Source: Acidobacteriota bacterium
GTDB taxonomy: Bacteria > Acidobacteriota > UBA890 > WLXD01
Length of the DNA stretch: 64,000 bases
Assembly (NCBI GenBank): GCA_965205505.1
Contig: CBDBHB010000008.1
Coordinates: 352,001-416,000 of the forward strand
Direction of reading: 5' to 3'
The notes beneath the pieces were generated by a model, which did no database searches, was not told the origin of the DNA, and saw only the letters and a program-made list of their open reading frames with translations. The stretch's first letter is position 1, and each line of letters starts with the position of its first letter. Shown piece after piece: positions 21,286 to 33,753 of the stretch. Position numbers and translations under genes: made by a program.

Positions 21286-22461
21286 ATGCCCGACAAGCAC
21301 GTCGGAGAGGCAACGTACGGAGACGCTGGCCTCTATCTCCACGCACCCTTCTGCACGCGCGTTTGTCCCTACTGCGATTTCGCCGTGCGCACCGGCAACG
21401 CACGCCGGCGCGCCCGCTTCGTCGACCACCTGATCGACGAGATGGAGCACTACCGCGAGTGGACCCGGGTGATCGACACGGTCTACGTGGGCGGTGGCAC
21501 GCCCTCGTGCATGGATCCCGCGCAGCTGGCGAGAGTGCTCGATTGCGCCAGCGTCCAGCTACCGATACGCGCAGATGCGATGTACACCCTCGAGGCCAAT
21601 CCAGAGGACGTCAGCGTCGAATCGGCCGCGGCCTGGCGCCATCTCGGGTTCGATACCCTCAACCTCGGCACGCAATCGTTCGACGACGACGAGCTCGCTT
21701 TCCTGGGCCGCAGCCACACCGCTGCCGACGCCGCCCGCTGTGTCGAGGTGGCCCTCGACGCGGGCTTTGAGTCGGTCTCGGTCGACCTTATCTTCGGCCT
21801 ACCTGATCAACGTCCCGATGTTTGGCGCTCCAATCTGCAACGAGCTGTGGCGCTCCGACCAGATCACCTCTCTTGCTACCAGCTGACCCTACACAAGGGC
21901 ACGCCACTGCATCGACGCTGGCGACGCGGCGAGTACCAGGAGCTGCCCGATGCGGATCAGGCCGAGCTCTACTTGCTGGCTCACGAGTTTCTCGCCGACG
22001 CCGGTTACCGTGCCTATGAGGTATCGAACTTTTCGCGCGCGCCGCGTCACGAATCGCGTCACAATCGCAAGTACTGGGGCCACGCGCCCTACCTCGGTCT
22101 GGGCCCCTCGGCCCACTCATTCAGCGGCGGTCGCAGCCGCTGGTGGAACCTGCGCCAGCTCAACGACTGGGAGCGCGCGATCGGCAACGGTAAGCGCCCG
22201 CTCCACGGATCGGAACGGCTGCGCCGCGAGGATCTTGCTCTGGAGGCGGTCATGTTGGGGCTGCGCACGCGCGCCGGGCTCGATTGCGATGCCGTTCAGG
22301 AACGCTGGGGGACCGACGTGTGGACGCCAAACGAGGTCACGTTTGAACGCTTCGTCACCGAAGACCTGGTTGTCGTAAGCGGCCGTTGCGTGCGCCCGAC
22401 GCCCCGCGGCCTGGCGGTCGCCGACTATCTGGCGCGCGACGTAACGATCCCGCCGGCCTGA
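21286..22461 (+). CDS. hemW: Radical SAM heme chaperone HemW
   Basis: LYLHAPFCTRVCPYCDF, GGGTPS, YEVSNF, HNRKYW. Confidence 0.9.
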   Translation: MPDKHVGEATYGDAGLYLHAPFCTRVCPYCDFAVRTGNARRRARFVDHLIDEMEHYREWTRVIDTVYVGGGTPSCMDPAQLARVLDCASVQLPIRADAMYTLEANPEDVSVESAAAWRHLGFDTLNLGTQSFDDDELAFLGRSHTAADAARCVEVALDAGFESVSVDLIFGLPDQRPDVWRSNLQRAVALRPDHLSCYQLTLHKGTPLHRRWRRGEYQELPDADQAELYLLAHEFLADAGYRAYEVSNFSRAPRHESRHNRKYWGHAPYLGLGPSAHSFSGGRSRWWNLRQLNDWERAIGNGKRPLHGSERLRREDLALEAVMLGLRTRAGLDCDAVQERWGTDVWTPNEVTFERFVTEDLVVVSGRCVRPTPRGLAVADYLARDVTIPPA

Positions 22462-22466
22462 CTACG

Positions 22467-23789
22467 ATGTCCCGCATGCAAACCGGCCTGACCGGCCGCG
22501 AGATCGCCACCACATGGTGGCCACTGGCACTCAGCTGGCTCTTCATGGCGCTCGAGCTACCGGTGGTAAGTGCCGCGCTTGCACGCCTGCCAGAGGCGCA
22601 GATCCAGCTGGCCGCCTTTGGCGGCGTGGTGATGGCGTTGCTGCTGCTGGTCGAGTCCCCGATCATCATGCTGTTGGCTGCTTCCACGGCGCTGTCGCGC
22701 GACGGTGCCAGCTACCTGTCGCTGCGTAACTTCATGCACCGGTTGAGCGCCGGGCTCACGCTGGTGCAGCTCGTGCTGGCGACCACGCCTCTCTACGACT
22801 TAGTGGTGACGAGGTTGATCGCCGTCCCCGAAGCGGTGGTCGAGCCCGCCCGGATCGGCCTGCTGATCGCGGTGCCATGGACCTGGACGATCGCCTACCG
22901 CCGGTTCAACCAGGGAATCCTCATCCGGCACGGTGCCTCTCGCGCCGTTGGCGTGGGAACGCTGCTGCGGCTCATCGCCAATGTCGTAGTGCTGGGCGCG
23001 GGGCTCTGGCTCCACCGGGTTGCGCCGCAGCTCACCCCTTCGGGGGTGGCGCTCGGCAGCAGCGCGGTGCTCGCCGGAGTCGTTGCCGAGGCAACGTTCG
23101 TCCGCTGGCGGGTCACACCGATCATTCGGCGGCATTTCGACCTCGACTCCCCGGCCGGAGAGGGCATCGCGCTTGGCGAGCTCCTACGCTTCTATGTGCC
23201 GTTGGCGCTGACTTCGTTGCTGGCGCTGATCATGCAGCCGGTCGGCAGCGCCGCTGTGAGCCGCATGCCGCTGCCGCTGCCATCGCTGGCGGCCTGGCCA
23301 GTGGTCGTCGGAGTAGTGTTCGTACTGCGGAGCCCGGGCACGGCGTTCAAAGAGGTGGTCGTCGCGTTGCTGGATCGGCCCGACCCCGAACCGGCCCTCC
23401 GCCGGTTTGCCGTGTCGCTGGTATTGATCAGCTTGGGGCTGTCGCTGTTGGCGTTCACGCCGCTCAGCCACCTGCTCCTGGTACGTTTCTCCGCCCTTAC
23501 GCCGGAGCTCGCGACGCTGGCCGGTACCGGCCTCAAGATCGCCGTATTGCTTCCCGCCATGAGTGTGCTGCAGAACGCCTACGTCGGCGTGCTGGTGCAT
23601 CGGCGCCGGACCCGCCCGGTCACCGAATCGATGGTCGTTTTCCTGTCGATCTCGATCGCCGGTCTGATTCTCGGCGTGCTCCGGGGCGGGGCGCCGGGAA
23701 TCTATGTGGCATACGCAGCGTTCACCGCCGGGCACCTGGCACAGTTGTTCTGGGTTCGACGAGCGGTCGGTCGGACTGTGTCCGCGTGA
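22467..23789 (+). CDS. MATE/ANKH-like (MOP superfamily) membrane protein
   Basis: About 12 TM segments with internal duplication (WWPLALS / FYVPLALTS). Confidence 0.7.
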   Translation: MSRMQTGLTGREIATTWWPLALSWLFMALELPVVSAALARLPEAQIQLAAFGGVVMALLLLVESPIIMLLAASTALSRDGASYLSLRNFMHRLSAGLTLVQLVLATTPLYDLVVTRLIAVPEAVVEPARIGLLIAVPWTWTIAYRRFNQGILIRHGASRAVGVGTLLRLIANVVVLGAGLWLHRVAPQLTPSGVALGSSAVLAGVVAEATFVRWRVTPIIRRHFDLDSPAGEGIALGELLRFYVPLALTSLLALIMQPVGSAAVSRMPLPLPSLAAWPVVVGVVFVLRSPGTAFKEVVVALLDRPDPEPALRRFAVSLVLISLGLSLLAFTPLSHLLLVRFSALTPELATLAGTGLKIAVLLPAMSVLQNAYVGVLVHRRRTRPVTESMVVFLSISIAGLILGVLRGGAPGIYVAYAAFTAGHLAQLFWVRRAVGRTVSA

Positions 23790-27120: not shown

Positions 27121-28445
<1,325 letters not shown>

Positions 28446-28449
<4 letters not shown>

Positions 28450-28480
28450 CAAGCCGTGGTGGAAGTGTGGTGGGTCTGGC
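28446..28480 (+). repeat. CTAG-terminated repeat family member overlapping the ino1 stop
   Basis: CTAGCAAGCCGTGGTGGAAGTGTGGTGGGTCTGGC. Confidence 0.8.
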
Positions 28481-28483
28481 TCG

Positions 28484-29659
28484 CTACTGCCCGGCGGAGA
28501 CCGTCGAGCCGTTGATCGCCGACAGCAGCAGTTGATATCGCACAATCACGCTGCGGCCGGCGCGCTGCTCTACCCGGAATACGTGCTCGCCGCGATGCGC
28601 ATCCCACCCCTGGAACGACAGAATGCCGTTGACCACCAGCTCACCATCAGGGCTGTATACGTCCACCGGAAACTCGGTAGCATCGGCATCCACGACATAC
28701 GGAAAGACGAATAGCCGGCCCTGGTCATCGGTCTCGATGCCCGCCAGCGCCGGGAAGTAATCGGGCCAGATAGCATCCGCGTCCTCGGCCAGGTTGGCCG
28801 CCATCGTGCGCCCGACCCGCTCGGCCCGTCCGGTGGTCTTGGCCACCAGGTGCTCGGGAATCGGCTCGCGCGGCCAGGGCGCCTCCAGCACCCAGACAAC
28901 ATCGGCGTTGAGATCGAACGCGGCTACCTCGTAGATGGCGCTGGCGGTGGCATACACACGATCGCCTCCTACCACGAACGCCTCTTTCGGCCACAGGTGG
29001 ATGTCACCGGCGCGATCCTGCTCGGGCGCCTTGAATACGGTGAAGCGACCGACAACGCTGCCATCCTCGGCAACTAGACTCAGCACTCCGGTGGACAGCT
29101 CGCGGGCTACTGTCCGCTCATCACGAATCGGGTGTGGAAAGACGATCCCCGGCGCTGTCTCGACACCACGTAGATACGTACCATCGGACGCGAAAGTGGA
29201 CAGGCGGCCGGGCTCGGAAGGGTCAGGCGACAACTGCGCAATGACCAAGCCATCATGCCGAGCACCGATCGTCACCAGACTGCCCGGCGGTGTGGACTCC
29301 AGCACCACCTTGGCGCTTGTCCAGTCGCCCACGGCGATGCCTTGCGGTGTGAACGCCCCCAACCACACATCAGCGAGCGTATCGAACTTGAAGATTCTAC
29401 CCCCGGAGCCGACCGCGATGGCCAGCGCGTTGGGGAACTGCGGGTCTGCCGGAGCCACGTCGATCACCAGCTCCTCCACGGTGCCGACGCGAACGCGACC
29501 AGGACCCGCGGCCACCACCGCGACGCTGCGACGGGGGACGTCGTCGGCTACATAGAGAACAACCTCGTCCGCGCTCGTATCACCCGCTTCCGTGCCGCCA
29601 CAAGATATCAATAGTGCCCCAGAGGCAACTATCAACAGTATCAACCACTTATGTATCAA
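28484..29659 (-). CDS. Lipoprotein, probable 6-bladed beta-propeller (NHL-like)
   Basis: LLISC lipobox; repeated beta-rich units (IAVGSGGRIF, IETDDQGRLFV, DVYSPDGELV). Confidence 0.7.
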   Translation of the reverse strand: MIHKWLILLIVASGALLISCGGTEAGDTSADEVVLYVADDVPRRSVAVVAAGPGRVRVGTVEELVIDVAPADPQFPNALAIAVGSGGRIFKFDTLADVWLGAFTPQGIAVGDWTSAKVVLESTPPGSLVTIGARHDGLVIAQLSPDPSEPGRLSTFASDGTYLRGVETAPGIVFPHPIRDERTVARELSTGVLSLVAEDGSVVGRFTVFKAPEQDRAGDIHLWPKEAFVVGGDRVYATASAIYEVAAFDLNADVVWVLEAPWPREPIPEHLVAKTTGRAERVGRTMAANLAEDADAIWPDYFPALAGIETDDQGRLFVFPYVVDADATEFPVDVYSPDGELVVNGILSFQGWDAHRGEHVFRVEQRAGRSVIVRYQLLLSAINGSTVSAGQ

Positions 29660-29691
29660 GTATCCCCCTTACACCCAAGGGAATAGTTTAG

Positions 29692-29725
29692 CTAGCTCGT
29701 GGTGCTTACTAGCTCGTGGTGCTTA
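29692..29725. repeat. Perfect 17-bp tandem duplication CTAGCTCGTGGTGCTTA x2
   Basis: Direct reading. Confidence 0.9.
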
Positions 29726-29736
29726 AAGGAAGCCCG

Positions 29737-29781
29737 AAGAAAAGAAAGTGGGGGTACCCGATTGACAACCGGGCACCCCCC
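29737..29781 (-). terminator. Rho-independent terminator after the small Cys-rich peptide gene
   Basis: Minus strand GGGGGTGCCCG-loop-CGGGTACCCCC followed by ACTTTCTTTTCTT. Confidence 0.75.
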
Positions 29782-29820
29782 GTATGTTCAGCTCCGATTG
29801 CTCGGAGCACAGGTACCGCT

Positions 29821-29991
29821 CTAGCGGCACGATCTCCAGCAGCCCGAAACGGATCCGCCCATTGCGATGCAGGCTCTCATACACGAGCGCGGACCTGCCT
29901 CGGCCGGGGCGACGCTCAGCTGAAGTATGCCGAGAGCCATCACGGTGCCGAAGAGTAGCGTCGCTGCAATACGCAGCGTTCGCCTAGTCAT
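29821..29991 (-). CDS. 56-aa exported precursor of a four-cysteine peptide (CX3C-X9-CX3C)
   Basis: GGAG RBS; Sec-type signal ending A-E-A; predicted mature GPRSCMRACIAMGGSVSGCWRSCR; followed by a hairpin and a terminator. Confidence 0.75.
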   Translation of the reverse strand: MTRRTLRIAATLLFGTVMALGILQLSVAPAEAGPRSCMRACIAMGGSVSGCWRSCR

Positions 29992-30396
29992 CCTCTTTAC
30001 TCCGGGGAGAGGGACCCTCGATGGAGGGGCCCGATGAGGTTTGGAAGACTTCACAGGTGTTGGGTCATTCCCCCTTCGGCACAGCTATTCGGGGAGGTGA
30101 ACGGTCGCACGGTCTGATCACCACATCAGCTGCCCGCGGTTGTGCCTACCGCGGGAGCCTCGCAGCAACCAAGGTCTTCGCCGAGCGACCCGGACAAAGC
30201 GTTGTTCGTGGTCAGGTACTAACGGTCGATAAGATCGAGTAGAACATCGACATCGGCTTCTCTGAGCGCCCCAGACCAGACGCGTTCAACAACAGCGTCG
30301 GCTCCCACCAGAACCGTTATCGGCACTAGCGGGACTGGGCCTCCCCCGATTTCCCGGACACCTTTGGAAGTCCGATAATGGGCTCGGAGGTGAAGC

Positions 30397-30690
30397 ATGG
30401 GGTCACGACGGCGGTACAGTCGCGAGTTCAAGATTGAGGCAGTGAGGATGGTGACGCAGCTGGGCCATCCGGTGTCTGAGGTGGCCCGGGATCTGGGTGT
30501 TGGCCGCGGCATGTTGACCAAGTGGCGCAAACAGCTCCAGGAGCAGGGGGTCACGGCGTTTCCGGGCGCGGGGAAGATGCCCGACCAGGACCTGGACGGG
30601 CAACAGCTACGGCGGCACCTGCGGCGAGTACGGCAGGAGCGCGACATTCTAAAAAAAGCGTTGGCGATCTTCTCGGAACGCCCGCGATGA
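30397..30690 (+). CDS. IS3 OrfA (HTH)
   Basis: RRYSREFKIEAV...ERDILKKA; A7G slippery site at 30651-30658. Confidence 0.92.
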   Translation: MGSRRRYSREFKIEAVRMVTQLGHPVSEVARDLGVGRGMLTKWRKQLQEQGVTAFPGAGKMPDQDLDGQQLRRHLRRVRQERDILKKALAIFSERPR

Positions 30691-31682
30691 AGTACCCGAT
30701 CATCAAGCAACTGTCCGGCAAGTTCCCGGTGCGGCGGTTGTGCAAGATGCTCGAGGTGTCTCACGGCGGTTACTACGAGTGGCGAGGAAGGGGGCCGAGC
30801 CCGAGAGCGCGAGAAGATCGCCGTCTACGTGTGCAGATCAGAGCTGCATTCCGAGAGAGCCGCGACCGTTACGGAAGTCCGCGCATCCACAAGCAACTTC
30901 GGCAACGAGGGATCCGCTGCTCTCGCAAGCGGGTAGCTCGGCTGATGCGCCAGGAAGGACTTCGAGCTCGCCAACCCCGTCGGTTCCGGGTGACAACACG
31001 GCCCACACCTGGCCGGTCAGCGGCGCCCAACGTGCTGGCACGGCGCTTCACGGTGGATGCCGTGGACAGCGTCTGGGTGGGCGACCTGACATACCTGTGG
31101 ACGCAGGAAGGATGGCTATACCTGGCCGTGGTGATGGATCTGTGCTCGCGACGGATCATCGGCTGGGCGGTGAGCGAGACGATGACGGACGATTTGACGC
31201 TGGCGGTCCTGGATCAGGCCTTGGAGCAACGCCGTCCCGGTTCCGGAGTGCTCCATCACAGCGACCGCGGCAGCCAGTACAGCAGCGACGATTACCTAGA
31301 CAAGCTGCGTGACCGTGGCTTCACCATCAGCATGAGCAGGAAAGGAGACTGCTGGGATAACGCGCCGATGGAGAGTTTCTTCTCTACCCTGAAGTTCCAA
31401 CTCGGTGGCTGCTTCAGTTCCCGGGCGGCGGCCCGAGCCGAGTTGTTCCACTACATCGAAGTGTTCTACAACCGGGCTCGCATGCACACCTCGATCGGAG
31501 ACCAGAGTCCGGCTCAGTTCGAGGCGGCAATGCGGCGGCCAGGCCAGAGCGGCCAATCAGCTGTGGAAGCTGACGCGCCCGTGGAAATCGACTCCCGATT
31601 TCCACCGTCGCTTGGACAACGCTCCGCGTTGCCAACAGCTCCCACAGCCGCTAATACGACTACGACAATGGATCTTAACTAA
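30687..31682 (+). CDS. IS3 OrfB DDE transposase (rve)
   Basis: YGSPRI, WVGDLTY, HHSDRGSQY, CWDNAPMESFF. Confidence 0.95.
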   Translation: MKYPIIKQLSGKFPVRRLCKMLEVSHGGYYEWRGRGPSPRAREDRRLRVQIRAAFRESRDRYGSPRIHKQLRQRGIRCSRKRVARLMRQEGLRARQPRRFRVTTRPTPGRSAAPNVLARRFTVDAVDSVWVGDLTYLWTQEGWLYLAVVMDLCSRRIIGWAVSETMTDDLTLAVLDQALEQRRPGSGVLHHSDRGSQYSSDDYLDKLRDRGFTISMSRKGDCWDNAPMESFFSTLKFQLGGCFSSRAAARAELFHYIEVFYNRARMHTSIGDQSPAQFEAAMRRPGQSGQSAVEADAPVEIDSRFPPSLGQRSALPTAPTAANTTTTMDLN

Positions 31683-32392
31683 GTGTCCGGGAAAGCGGGG
31701 CAAGGTCAGACCTTCAGCGCAGCGCTAGCGGCGAGCTGGTCGTCTGGGAGCCACAGCGGCCATGCCACCCCCATCTCGGTGACGTAGCTTCGCGTCCGCT
31801 CCGCGTCGTCGAGGGAAACGCCAACGAACGGGACGCCGCTCGCGGCATACGCCTCGGCAAGCCGCTCCCAGGCAGGGAGTGTTTCCTTGCAGAAGGGGCA
31901 AGTAGTGGTCAGAAACGCGATCACGCCGCCACGCGGCACGATGTTGCTCAGGGCTGACGGTCGACCGGCAAGATCGGTGAGCAAGACCGCAGGCAACGTG
32001 TCGCCCGCCTGCAACGAGGGGCCCAGCGTCGAAGAAGACTGAGCGCGGAGCTGGGCGATGTCGCTCTTCAGCTCACGGTTCTCGCTAACCAACGCCCACA
32101 TTACGTAGGCCGTACCAACTGCCAGGGTCAAAAATAGCGCACTACTGACCCATTCAGGCATATGACGTCCGAATATCATGTTTTCACCTCCCAACTACTC
32201 GATCAAGATTTTTACAGTGTTTTAACTAGTGAAAATATTTAATGACATATTTTAGTTAGTTAGTGACTCATAGGTCAAGAGTGGTCAAGAGTTGTTAGAC
32301 TTGTTTTTAACTTAATTTACCTTGATTCATATCGATTTATATCTAATTTAATTTATAAGAATGAATTTCTATGTTTTTCTATTTTTAACTAG

Positions 32393-32539
32393 CTAATACT
32401 GACTTTTACTAGGCCCCCAAGATCCCCGGACGGTGCCTGCTCGAGGGGGCTCAAGCGACCACATCACGGAGGCAACGCCAATCGACAGGATCAGCAACAG
32501 CGCACTGCCGGTCCATTTGGGCATACGCAACCGGAGCAT
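32393..32539 (-). pseudogene. Truncated paralog of the N-terminus of the TlpA-like gene
   Basis: MLRLRMPKWTGSALLLILSIGVASVMWSL versus MIFGRHMPEWVSSALFLTLAVGTAYVMWAL; similar GGGAGG...AAAACATG start context. Confidence 0.65.
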
Positions 32540-32850: not shown

Positions 32851-33753
32851 ATGGTCGACGACCTCACGACGGTCATCTGGCTGGCCGGGGCCGGTCGCTG
32901 GCTCGCCTACGCGTGCACGCTCTGGATCGGTGGCACCGTCCTGGCGGAGCTCTTGCTGGTCGGCGCGGACGTCGACCGGCGACCAATGGGTCGCCGACTC
33001 GCCGGGCCAGCAATTGCCGCAGCCGCCGGCTTGGTGGCGCTGCGCGCGAGCCTGCTCTGGGCACAGGCATGGCTGCTGTTCGCTCTCGATGAACCGGTTA
33101 CGTTCGAGCTCGTACGCGTGGTGGCGCTACGGACCAGTTGGGGGACCGGATGGCAATGTCAGGTCGCCGCCGGGATCGTGGCGCTGATCGGCTTCGCGCT
33201 TCGTCGGGCGGGTGCACCCGCCGGACGGGTGGTGGCCGCGGTCGGCTGTGCCGGCGCGGCGCTAAGCGTGCCGCTGACCGGGCACGCCGTCGAGCAAGGA
33301 TGGCTGAACGTGCCGGTCGGAACACAGATGCTGCATGTGGTCGGCGCCACCGCCTGGATCGGAACGCTAGCGGTGCTGGCGACTGTGCTCCTCCGCCCCG
33401 GCGCGACCGTTACCCACCACGAGGTAGCGCGCGCCATTCACCGCTTCTCGCCGTTGGCGCTGACCGCAGCGGCGACTCTATTGCTCACCGGCGTCACGAC
33501 CTCGTGGTTCTACATGGGCGAGATCAACGCACTCTGGACAACGAACTACGGGCGAGCGCTGGCGCTCAAGGCTCTGGTGTTCGTAACGATCGGGTCCATC
33601 GGCTACATCAACTGGCGACGGGTGCGTCCGCAGCTCGGAACCAGCGCCGGCACCGATCGCCTGCGCCGCAGCGTCGCCGTCGAGCTAACGTGGGCGACTG
33701 TGCTCCTGCTCGTCACCGCGGTACTGGTGGCGTTGCCGATGCCCATGGGCTGA
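32851..33753 (+). CDS. copD: CopD family copper resistance membrane protein
   Basis: LTGHA, LHVVGATAWIGTL, RFSPLA, TNYGRALALK. Confidence 0.85.
   Translation: MVDDLTTVIWLAGAGRWLAYACTLWIGGTVLAELLLVGADVDRRPMGRRLAGPAIAAAAGLVALRASLLWAQAWLLFALDEPVTFELVRVVALRTSWGTGWQCQVAAGIVALIGFALRRAGAPAGRVVAAVGCAGAALSVPLTGHAVEQGWLNVPVGTQMLHVVGATAWIGTLAVLATVLLRPGATVTHHEVARAIHRFSPLALTAAATLLLTGVTTSWFYMGEINALWTTNYGRALALKALVFVTIGSIGYINWRRVRPQLGTSAGTDRLRRSVAVELTWATVLLLVTAVLVALPMPMG

Follow-up and report, generated by a model that had tools for sequence, protein, structure and literature searches.

Three co-oriented genes on the minus strand are the subject of this report. They lie in a stretch of 64,000 nucleotides from an Acidobacteriota genome (the window, G000:C8:352001-416000, where G000 denotes the source genome) and encode, as the sequence-only reading of this DNA had seen, a membrane-anchored redoxin, a 56-residue precursor of a cysteine-rich peptide and a beta-propeller lipoprotein. 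We found that the peptide gene is real and conserved in its family, that the cassette is in decay in the source genome, and that it resembles a branch of a disulfide-peptide system which is widespread and has apparently not been described. The explanation that we favour, and regard as reasonably probable, is dedicated oxidative folding of a Sec-exported disulfide hairpin, which would be produced in excess by means of its own leader and terminator and would have the propeller as its binding partner.

Results

The peptide gene and its conservation

The peptide precursor (56 aa, 29821..29991, minus strand) is supported by its open reading frame (ORF), a profile, selection and a structure model. 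Its ATG is preceded by a GGAG 8 nt upstream and also by an AGAGG. The precursor consists of an n-region with three Arg, a hydrophobic stretch of about 20 residues, an A-E-A motif and a 24-residue core with the spacing C-X3-C-X9-C-X3-C, which has a net charge of +4 in the source genome. Signal peptides were assessed here by anatomy and conservation, and both are consistent with Sec export and cleavage at A-E-A. Tat export was rejected because the Arg pair is not kept in the homologs. In the whole genome, 69 ORFs have a C-terminal twin-CX3C pattern; only two of these also have a hydrophobic leader and both adjoin a CPFC redoxin, so that the peptide ORF is not a chance occurrence.

The claimed gene for an exported cysteine peptide with hairpinin spacing is real. 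A profile built from 11 peptides detects it in 8 of 10 family genomes and in none of 15 sister-family genomes, and the four Cys are invariant among the aligned family peptides. The gene order, read from the stretches around the best family propeller matches, is identically redoxin-peptide-propeller in G001, G002, G004, G005, G006, G007, G008 and G009. G003 has no peptide and a truncated propeller beside insertion sequence (IS) genes, and in G010 the redoxin stops 120 bases short of the contig end. Peptide dN/dS is 0.10-0.43 in 15 of 15 genus pairs and never above 1, while the core changes faster than the signal (pN about 0.25-0.36 versus 0.09-0.16 in deep pairs).

Database searches let the family grow to 25 distinct cores with net charges from 0 to +4. 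Sixteen have the spacing 3-9-3, one has 3-5-3 and eight are six-Cys extensions. The cores show no conservation of Met or His, and a conserved Trp pair is absent from the aligned family peptides. No Pfam family matched the window peptide or the scanned cassette peptides; this includes NVEALA (PF14055), which gave no match for the window peptide or nine other cassette peptides.

Redoxin and peptide are duplicated in tandem in G001 and G002. G004 retains the unit-1 redoxin, a frameshifted peptide 1 and peptide 2, and the source genome retains a stub of unit 1 plus unit 2. Comparison of these copies suggests that the genus once carried a tandem redoxin-peptide duplication.

The predicted hairpin fold

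The model of the precursor has a signal helix followed by a helix-loop-helix core with predicted helices at residues 34-43 and 48-55 (pLDDT 82-87), in line with the helix-loop-helix proposed earlier. Thionins fill the top three Foldseek rows, at an rmsd of 0.5-2.1 Å over 22-25 residues and with E values of 2.4-3.7 only, and the overlay on the helical hairpin of hellethionin D (rmsd 0.5-0.8 Å over 22 residues) is not significant. The profile search against the PDB gave nothing better than E 0.35: the best rows are alvinellacin, conotoxin vil14a, kappa-KTx and kappa-hefutoxin (E 0.35-0.91), with no hairpinin among the 11 matches listed. In the ESM Atlas the best feature score was 0.77 and the clusters are unnamed.

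The available text of PMC7191063 describes CX3C-Xn-CX3C with C1-C4/C2-C3 pairing as common to hairpinins, these animal peptides and the thionin core, and the hairpinin motif as the active part of thionins. Hairpin geometry points to the same C1-C4/C2-C3 pairing in our peptide. Since the motif is common to unrelated eukaryotic families, the likeness is best taken as convergence. Judged by the model, the peptide may resemble the hairpinin-type scaffold in its working; that it belongs to any such family is not established.

A 19-residue module, C-X3-C-X3-G-X5-C-X3-C, recurs in 2-7 copies in 45 of 49 non-family, otherwise unrelated hits. Most of the proteins that bear it (P0020, P0023-P0070) have signal-like N-termini, and they are mostly secreted. 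The module has no Pfam family of its own among the proteins scanned and gives cross-hits to Thionin, Ole e 6 and Toxin_25 only. Because it is repeated in so many unrelated secreted proteins, we take it as a common extracellular module, which alone is no sign of antimicrobial action.

The redoxin and its lesions

The 5' part of the redoxin (31709..32179, minus strand) starts at 32179 with an N-terminal hydrophobic anchor and has a TlpA/ResA fold with CPFC. Pfam matches over the cut-off are AhpC-TSA (E 4.6e-11) and Redoxin (6.2e-9), and the ortholog alignment contains the membrane anchor, the Redoxin fold, the CxxC and the Pro loop. The nearest solved relatives are ResA proteins (E 2.1e-12). The protein stays below every named NCBIfam cut-off (ResA, TlpA, StoA, DsbE, MauD), with for example 36.8 of 170 bits for ResA and 13.6 of 188.6 bits for MauD. 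In the family the motif is CP[FY]C. Most family redoxins (L031-L039, L095) end in a D-P-x-C-C tail, which G006 lacks and which does not appear in either of the two redoxins adjoined by MauE. This C-C tail might replace a membrane redox partner.

In the window the gene is a pseudogene. An IS3-family element (30336..31708, plus strand; orfA 30397-30690, orfB 30687-31682; Pfam rve, HTH_21 and HTH_Tnp_1) splits it with a 3-bp target duplication, GAC; eight other near-full copies in the genome are >99.5% identical. The 3' remnant (30126..30335, minus strand), 64-74% identical to genus orthologs by tblastn, is read for 38 codons up to a TAG at 30221-30219, followed at 30126-30218 by an unread 30-codon tail with the C-C motif. 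Relatives continue into this 30-residue tail. As they have sense codons at the position of the TAG, read-through was rejected and the TAG is treated as a nonsense change. The IS-split CPFC thioredoxin described by the sequence-only reading is therefore confirmed and has a second lesion, but its upper coordinate does not hold: the 48 codons at 32393..32539 (minus strand) are the stub of a first, deleted redoxin copy. Over 25 aa this stub is 56% identical to the redoxin N-terminus, and over 107 nt its DNA is 90.7% identical to the beginning of the G004 redoxin.

Contigs of three other studies reach both ends of the IS, and none joins across it. Runs X4, X5 and X8 have no variant at the redoxin TAG. 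Run X8 carries an 11-base deletion in the propeller gene, which shifts the frame, and A32V at position -1 of the putative peptide cleavage site, while X4 and X5 carry G33C, a fifth Cys, in the peptide; each of these variants comes from one contig at a depth of 2-6. Propeller dN/dS is 0.40 for G000 versus G004 and 0.25 in deeper pairs.

The redoxin clade accompanies cysteine-rich exported peptides

A second locus in the source genome consists of an ECF sigma factor, an anti-sigma-like gene, an 8-Cys exported peptide and a CPFC redoxin. Redoxin relatives at this locus, in the sister family and in two Gemmatimonadota genomes each adjoin a different peptide with a signal and Cys residues, and in the Gemmatimonadota locus L085 redoxin and peptide co-duplicate. 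We then widened the search with a broadened redoxin alignment, counting as neighbour any small ORF that combines a hydrophobic leader with 4 Cys or more. Of 65 loci of the redoxin clade, 42 have such a peptide beside the redoxin: in metagenomes 20 of 30, within the order 14 of 20, beyond the order 6 of 12, and in non-acidobacterial genomes 2 of 3. One of the 20 metagenome positives was counted via its MauE ORF, although the true peptide is present there, and several negative loci are short contigs or weakest hits. In the source genome a similar filter is passed by 46 of its 4289 long ORFs, a background of about 1%. Homologous loci hence do have adjacent cysteine ORFs, within the family (8 of 10) and in the wider clade, contrary to the outcome that the sequence-only reading had named as refuting it.

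After one MauE row was dropped, 41 distinct clade peptides remained. The Cys count is even in 40 of these, and 32 are net acidic. In loci L096 and L100 the redoxin is adjoined by MauE, an oxidase of the DsbB kind. All five family genomes searched, including the source genome, gave matches to VKOR, MauE-like and DsbD/CcdA proteins and none to DsbB. According to the accessible part of bioRxiv 10.64898/2026.03.05.709764, MauE replaces DsbB in E. coli, and action via DsbA or MauD is suggested. The even Cys parity together with the MauE neighbours favours oxidative folding. The proposed link between thioredoxin and peptide thus stands in so far as members of the redoxin clade accompany Cys-rich exported peptides in different phyla; that the thioredoxin of the source genome itself folds the peptide is unsupported, as it is a pseudogene there.

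Some further observations were made on these genes. In the second cassette (G000:C8:1252160-1254826; L040:8161-10827, minus strand) the anti-sigma-like gene is a zinc-finger gene and small zinc-finger-like ORFs follow the redoxin; its peptide-redoxin pair recurs in G001-G004, G006 and G007. About 12 kb away, a 312-codon frame combines a MauE domain with a CPHC thioredoxin-like piece (G000:C8:1239335-1240273, L169), and this frame is also found in G002 and G007. The VKOR gene scores identically at G000:C7:404333-404719 and C9:4181-4567, and other short ORFs are doubled across contigs too, which suggests overlapping contig ends in the assembly.

The propeller lipoprotein

The third gene (28484..29659, minus strand) encodes a lipoprotein of 391 aa with the lipobox L-I-S-C, modelled as a six-bladed NHL/DUF5128-like propeller (pLDDT 78). 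Its best Foldseek matches are NHL domains (E 1.9e-10). The protein is acidic, with 52 D+E versus 29 K+R, and has no Cys after the lipobox, so that the peptide is the sole disulfide client in the cassette. The window propeller gave no Pfam family at E 0.1 and consequently does not reach the PF17170 cut-off; the G005 ortholog scores 15.5 bits where 22.9 are required, the relative in L073 is over the cut-off with 30.5, and propeller relatives carry PF17170 and PF01436. Matches were found in 10 of 10 family, 10 of 15 sister-family and 0 of 35 more distant genomes. At about 269-293 the family propellers carry a flexible insertion, rich in Arg, that is specific to their clade.

In a quick tree of 82 propellers, a sample deliberately dominated by G011, the family orthologs form one clade of 7 (support 98). 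The 18 redoxin-adjacent propellers need six changes on this tree, at least three of them forced by strong branches. The full trio, with unrelated peptides and in several gene orders, occurs in 6 of the 20 order loci and in L073; among 20 stretches around sister-family propellers it occurs in one only. The propeller is therefore a member of a large family that has been recruited as partner repeatedly or lost often. Co-folding of propeller residues 36-381 with peptide residues 27-56, run without controls, scored 0.07 and 0.02. In G011:C1 (L057-L074), DUF5128-like propeller lipoproteins stand in tandem arrays, with 13 within 19 kb in L069, and almost none has a peptide or redoxin.

Non-coding features and neighbours

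On the minus strand the cassette reads, 5' to 3', redoxin stub, AT-rich block, IS3-split redoxin, leader, peptide gene, hairpin and terminator, propeller. The AT-rich upstream block (32200..32400, minus strand), recognised by GC content and a promoter scan, has a GC content of 0.405 compared with about 0.64 in its surroundings. It contains a sigma-70-like promoter, TTGACC-18-TAAAAT at 32278-32249, which taken alone is weak evidence, with 2 sites found versus 1.3 expected. The second redoxin copy in G001 and G002 is preceded by a comparable AT-rich block with TTGACC.

The leader of the peptide gene (29992..30125, minus strand) contains two motifs, TGTGCC..AAGG (from 30083) and CTCCCCGGAG (from 30009), both retained in 12 of 12 aligned copies. 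The second includes GGAG, the likely Shine-Dalgarno sequence of the peptide gene. The consensus fold of the leader is weak (-5.83 kcal/mol, 8 pairs), and two of three leaders fold no better than shuffles. Rfam gave no matches on 8 loci at the gathering threshold or on 29600-30340 at E up to 10, and a riboswitch is unsupported on both counts. A regulon built on the motifs is likewise rejected: nhmmer finds the leader as a single copy in the source genome. Candidate roles of the motifs are promoter, processing site or translational control.

Immediately 3' of the peptide stop lies a 7-bp hairpin with a GCAA loop (29791..29808, minus strand), which persists in G001, G002 and G004 with altered loop or stem. 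It is followed by an intrinsic-terminator-like hairpin of 14 pairs with a U tract (29750..29780, minus strand), placed between peptide and propeller. Jointly the two fold with -41.2 kcal/mol (z -4.88, equalled by 0 of 200 shuffles), and a long GC-rich hairpin of differing sequence stands 3' of the peptide gene in the copies of 10 of 10 relatives. The ribosome-binding site, hairpin and terminator that had been assigned to the peptide gene are thus all found.

A 17-base tandem duplication ahead of the propeller gene (29692-29727) is missing from runs X4 and X5. Of 24 runs with this sequence, none is listed as RNA; one run, guessed to be RNA, gave a single 179-nt contig within the propeller gene, which has no bearing on expression. 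Between the converging stops of ino1 and the propeller lies a single end (28445-28479) of a miniature inverted-repeat element of about 278 bp, which has 192 ends and 51 paired copies genome-wide. On the other side, a gene for a CopD-family membrane protein (32851-33753, plus strand) is divergent from the cassette and conserved in the genus.

Discussion

In the mechanism that we propose for the intact cassette, for example that of G002, G005, G006 or G008, the membrane-anchored periplasmic redoxin would form or reshuffle the two nested disulfides of a Sec-exported helix-loop-helix peptide of 20-35 residues. The redoxin would be re-oxidised by the VKOR or MauE of the cell, and in some other lineages MauE is encoded in the cassette. 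The peptide would be made in excess, as its own conserved leader and terminator allow. The Cys-free, acidic and often recruited propeller would most likely bind, hold or present the folded peptide.

Several observations weigh against this. The redoxin is broken or absent in five genomes: it is split in G000, has CPFG in G004, is frameshifted in one G001 copy and, perhaps through an assembly error, in G007, and is missing from the G003 locus. Peptide and propeller nevertheless remain open in G000, G001, G004 and G007, so that the redoxin may be dispensable. Either the cassette is being lost in the genus, or the two-disulfide peptide manages without a private redoxin. The redoxin may also work in the reducing direction: ResA proteins are reductases, and the likeness to them, together with the DsbD/CcdA membrane domain present in these genomes, would allow it. 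The propeller is an optional partner. Of the 82 sampled propellers 64 are without a redoxin neighbour, and a propeller at a distance of up to 1.5 kb occurs in no more than 2 of the 30 metagenome loci, many of which are short, and in 0 of 12 loci outside the order (1.5-kb flanks). Finally, peptide-adjacent redoxins served as seeds for the wider alignment, several of the loci are related to these seeds, and the 20 order loci were picked from the best-scoring hits. The co-occurrence rates are inflated by this, yet the gap to the background is still large.

The sequence-only reading had proposed an antimicrobial peptide with the propeller as immunity protein or receptor. In such a case the hairpin would be a cationic, Sec-exported, bacteriocin-like peptide. 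The +4 core of the source genome, the overlay on the thionin hairpin, the weak profile hits to alvinellacin, kappa-hefutoxin and conotoxin vil14a and the faster divergence of the core all point this way, as do the activity of the hairpinin motif in thionins (PMC7191063, in the portion available) and the thiol-disulfide oxidoreductases and immunity protein of glycocin clusters (PMC6405829, likewise). We consider it unlikely all the same. Family charges reach down to 0, and with 32 of 41 wider-class peptides acidic the term antimicrobial is unsupported; dN/dS never exceeds 1, no structure match reaches significance, and the scaffold is a convergent one, with its module repeated in unrelated secreted proteins. 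Moreover, neither a peptidase-ABC transporter nor a glycosyltransferase is found among the 22 ORFs scanned between 19 and 42 kb, of which one (22386-23786) has no family. The role of the propeller as immunity protein or receptor is unsupported; many sampled propellers lack a redoxin neighbour. An extracellular ligand or signal is a more likely role for the peptide than a membrane-lytic antibiotic.

Two further roles were also weighed. The peptide could be a Cu(I) or redox buffer that binds a soft metal in the periplasm and whose CX3C pairs are kept reduced by the redoxin; the C-C tail of the redoxin would pass on metal or electrons. TlpA reduces the CX3C chaperone ScoI, which offers a parallel; the best redoxin hits are of the ResA type, most family redoxins have the C-C tail, and G000, G001, G002 and G004 have a CopD gene that runs divergently from the cassette, while in G006 one lies near it. 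We hold this to be quite improbable, because the examined stretches of G005 and G007 gave no CopD match, the cores conserve neither Met nor His, the G006 redoxin has no C-C tail, and the even Cys number in 40 of 41 peptides and the MauE neighbours suggest full pairing. The chance that the peptide is instead a small subunit or lid of the propeller, so that the pair would be a periplasmic binding protein or an enzyme resembling methylamine dehydrogenase, seems slight to us. The types of parts do match mauB-mauD-mauA, as that enzyme has a small subunit rich in disulfides, a large subunit (MauB) with a propeller fold and MauD/MauE as maturases, and the family propellers are a single well-supported clade with an Arg-rich insertion of their own. 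In all copies, however, a terminator separates peptide and propeller, which implies unequal amounts; peptide genes duplicate without the propeller, the Trp pair is lacking, the scanned ORFs include no MauG-like neighbour, and the MauD model gives 13.6 bits where 188.6 are needed.

If dedicated oxidative folding is correct, bacterial disulfide-rich peptides without a class-defining modifying enzyme form a large pool, to which the redoxin clade is a simple guide; from 65 loci, 41 distinct Cys-rich peptides have surfaced. MauE/MauD-type oxidation would also gain a biological client unrelated to methylamine metabolism, and the function of DUF5128-like propeller lipoproteins, which are abundant, would become approachable for the first time. 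Synthesis and assay of the 24-residue two-disulfide member are inexpensive. The window copy is a poor starting point, and the intact cassettes of G002, G005, G006 and G008 are better. One may speculate further, at rather long odds, that many little-studied phyla run a general programme of Cys-rich peptides as plants and animals do. The T-T-C-P-[FY]-C redoxin clade, together with MauE, would then fold freely exchanged exported peptides of 4 to 12 Cys whose scaffolds resemble those of hairpinins, thionins and defensins, and their cognate NHL propeller lipoproteins would serve as receptors or display for cell-cell or host signalling, with the present family as the minimal two-disulfide member.

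Comparison with known systems

Plant alpha-hairpinins, the thionin core, kappa-hefutoxin and conotoxin vil14a share with the peptide CX3C-Xn-CX3C and the predicted helix-loop-helix. Alpha-hairpinins come from a multi-module precursor, whereas the bacterial peptide is a single module after a signal, and no significant sequence or structure score links the two. In Bacteroidales, NVEALA / DUF5128 neighbourhoods place a small exported Cys protein beside a DUF5128-like propeller lipoprotein. The cassette differs from these by phylum and Cys pattern, and its scanned peptides do not match PF14055.

Glycocin clusters such as that of sublancin have the arrangement sunA-sunS-sunT-bdbA-bdbB with sunI, according to the available part of PMC6405829. 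There, too, a small disulfide-bonded peptide has its own thiol-disulfide oxidoreductase. The same adjacency holds here, since the redoxin adjoins the peptide in 8 of 8 relatives, though it is a pseudogene in the source genome. Compared with what that source describes, our cassette has a hydrophobic leader of the Sec type with A-x-A, a different Cys spacing and a propeller lipoprotein instead of SunI.

NHLRC2/SOQ1 join a TlpA-like thioredoxin and a six-bladed NHL propeller, thought to be protein-binding and non-catalytic, in one unit (PMC6107167, as far as available). The fusion of both folds makes a functional link between redoxin and propeller plausible, though motif and architecture differ: NHLRC2/SOQ1 are one chain with CCINC, while the cassette has separate genes and CP[FY]C. 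The accessible text of PMC6107167 names no small peptide, and reports the bacterial homologs to be without conserved neighbours in 7 genomes.

The role of MauD in maturing methylamine dehydrogenase has been described (bioRxiv 10.64898/2026.03.05.709764 and PMC7794033, both available in part). The scanned neighbours of the cassette in the window contain neither a MauE nor a cytochrome peroxidase family, that is, no sign of a mau cluster. A close precedent is found in Streptomyces, where decRiPPter (2020, PMC7794033) lists candidate clusters of ribosomally synthesised and post-translationally modified peptides in which homologs of mauE and mauD accompany precursors with 8 Cys or more. Both these clusters, to judge from the available text, and the cassette combine a MauD/TlpA-type thioredoxin, sometimes with MauE, and a small Cys-rich precursor outside a methylamine dehydrogenase cluster, and disulfide formation is proposed there too. 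The cassette belongs to another phylum, has 4 Cys, no MauE of its own and a redoxin far under the MauD cut-off, and that text mentions no propeller and leaves the Streptomyces clusters uncharacterised. A literature search over titles and the starts of abstracts, outside subscription journals, returned nothing on the trio or the peptide family, and S2 Table of PMC7794033 may hold related clusters.

As far as these partly available sources go, peptides with private oxidoreductases are already known, as are mauD/mauE with Cys-rich precursors in Streptomyces. New here are the two-disulfide hairpin family, the Cys parity and acidity across the class, the link to MauE and the decay of the source copy.

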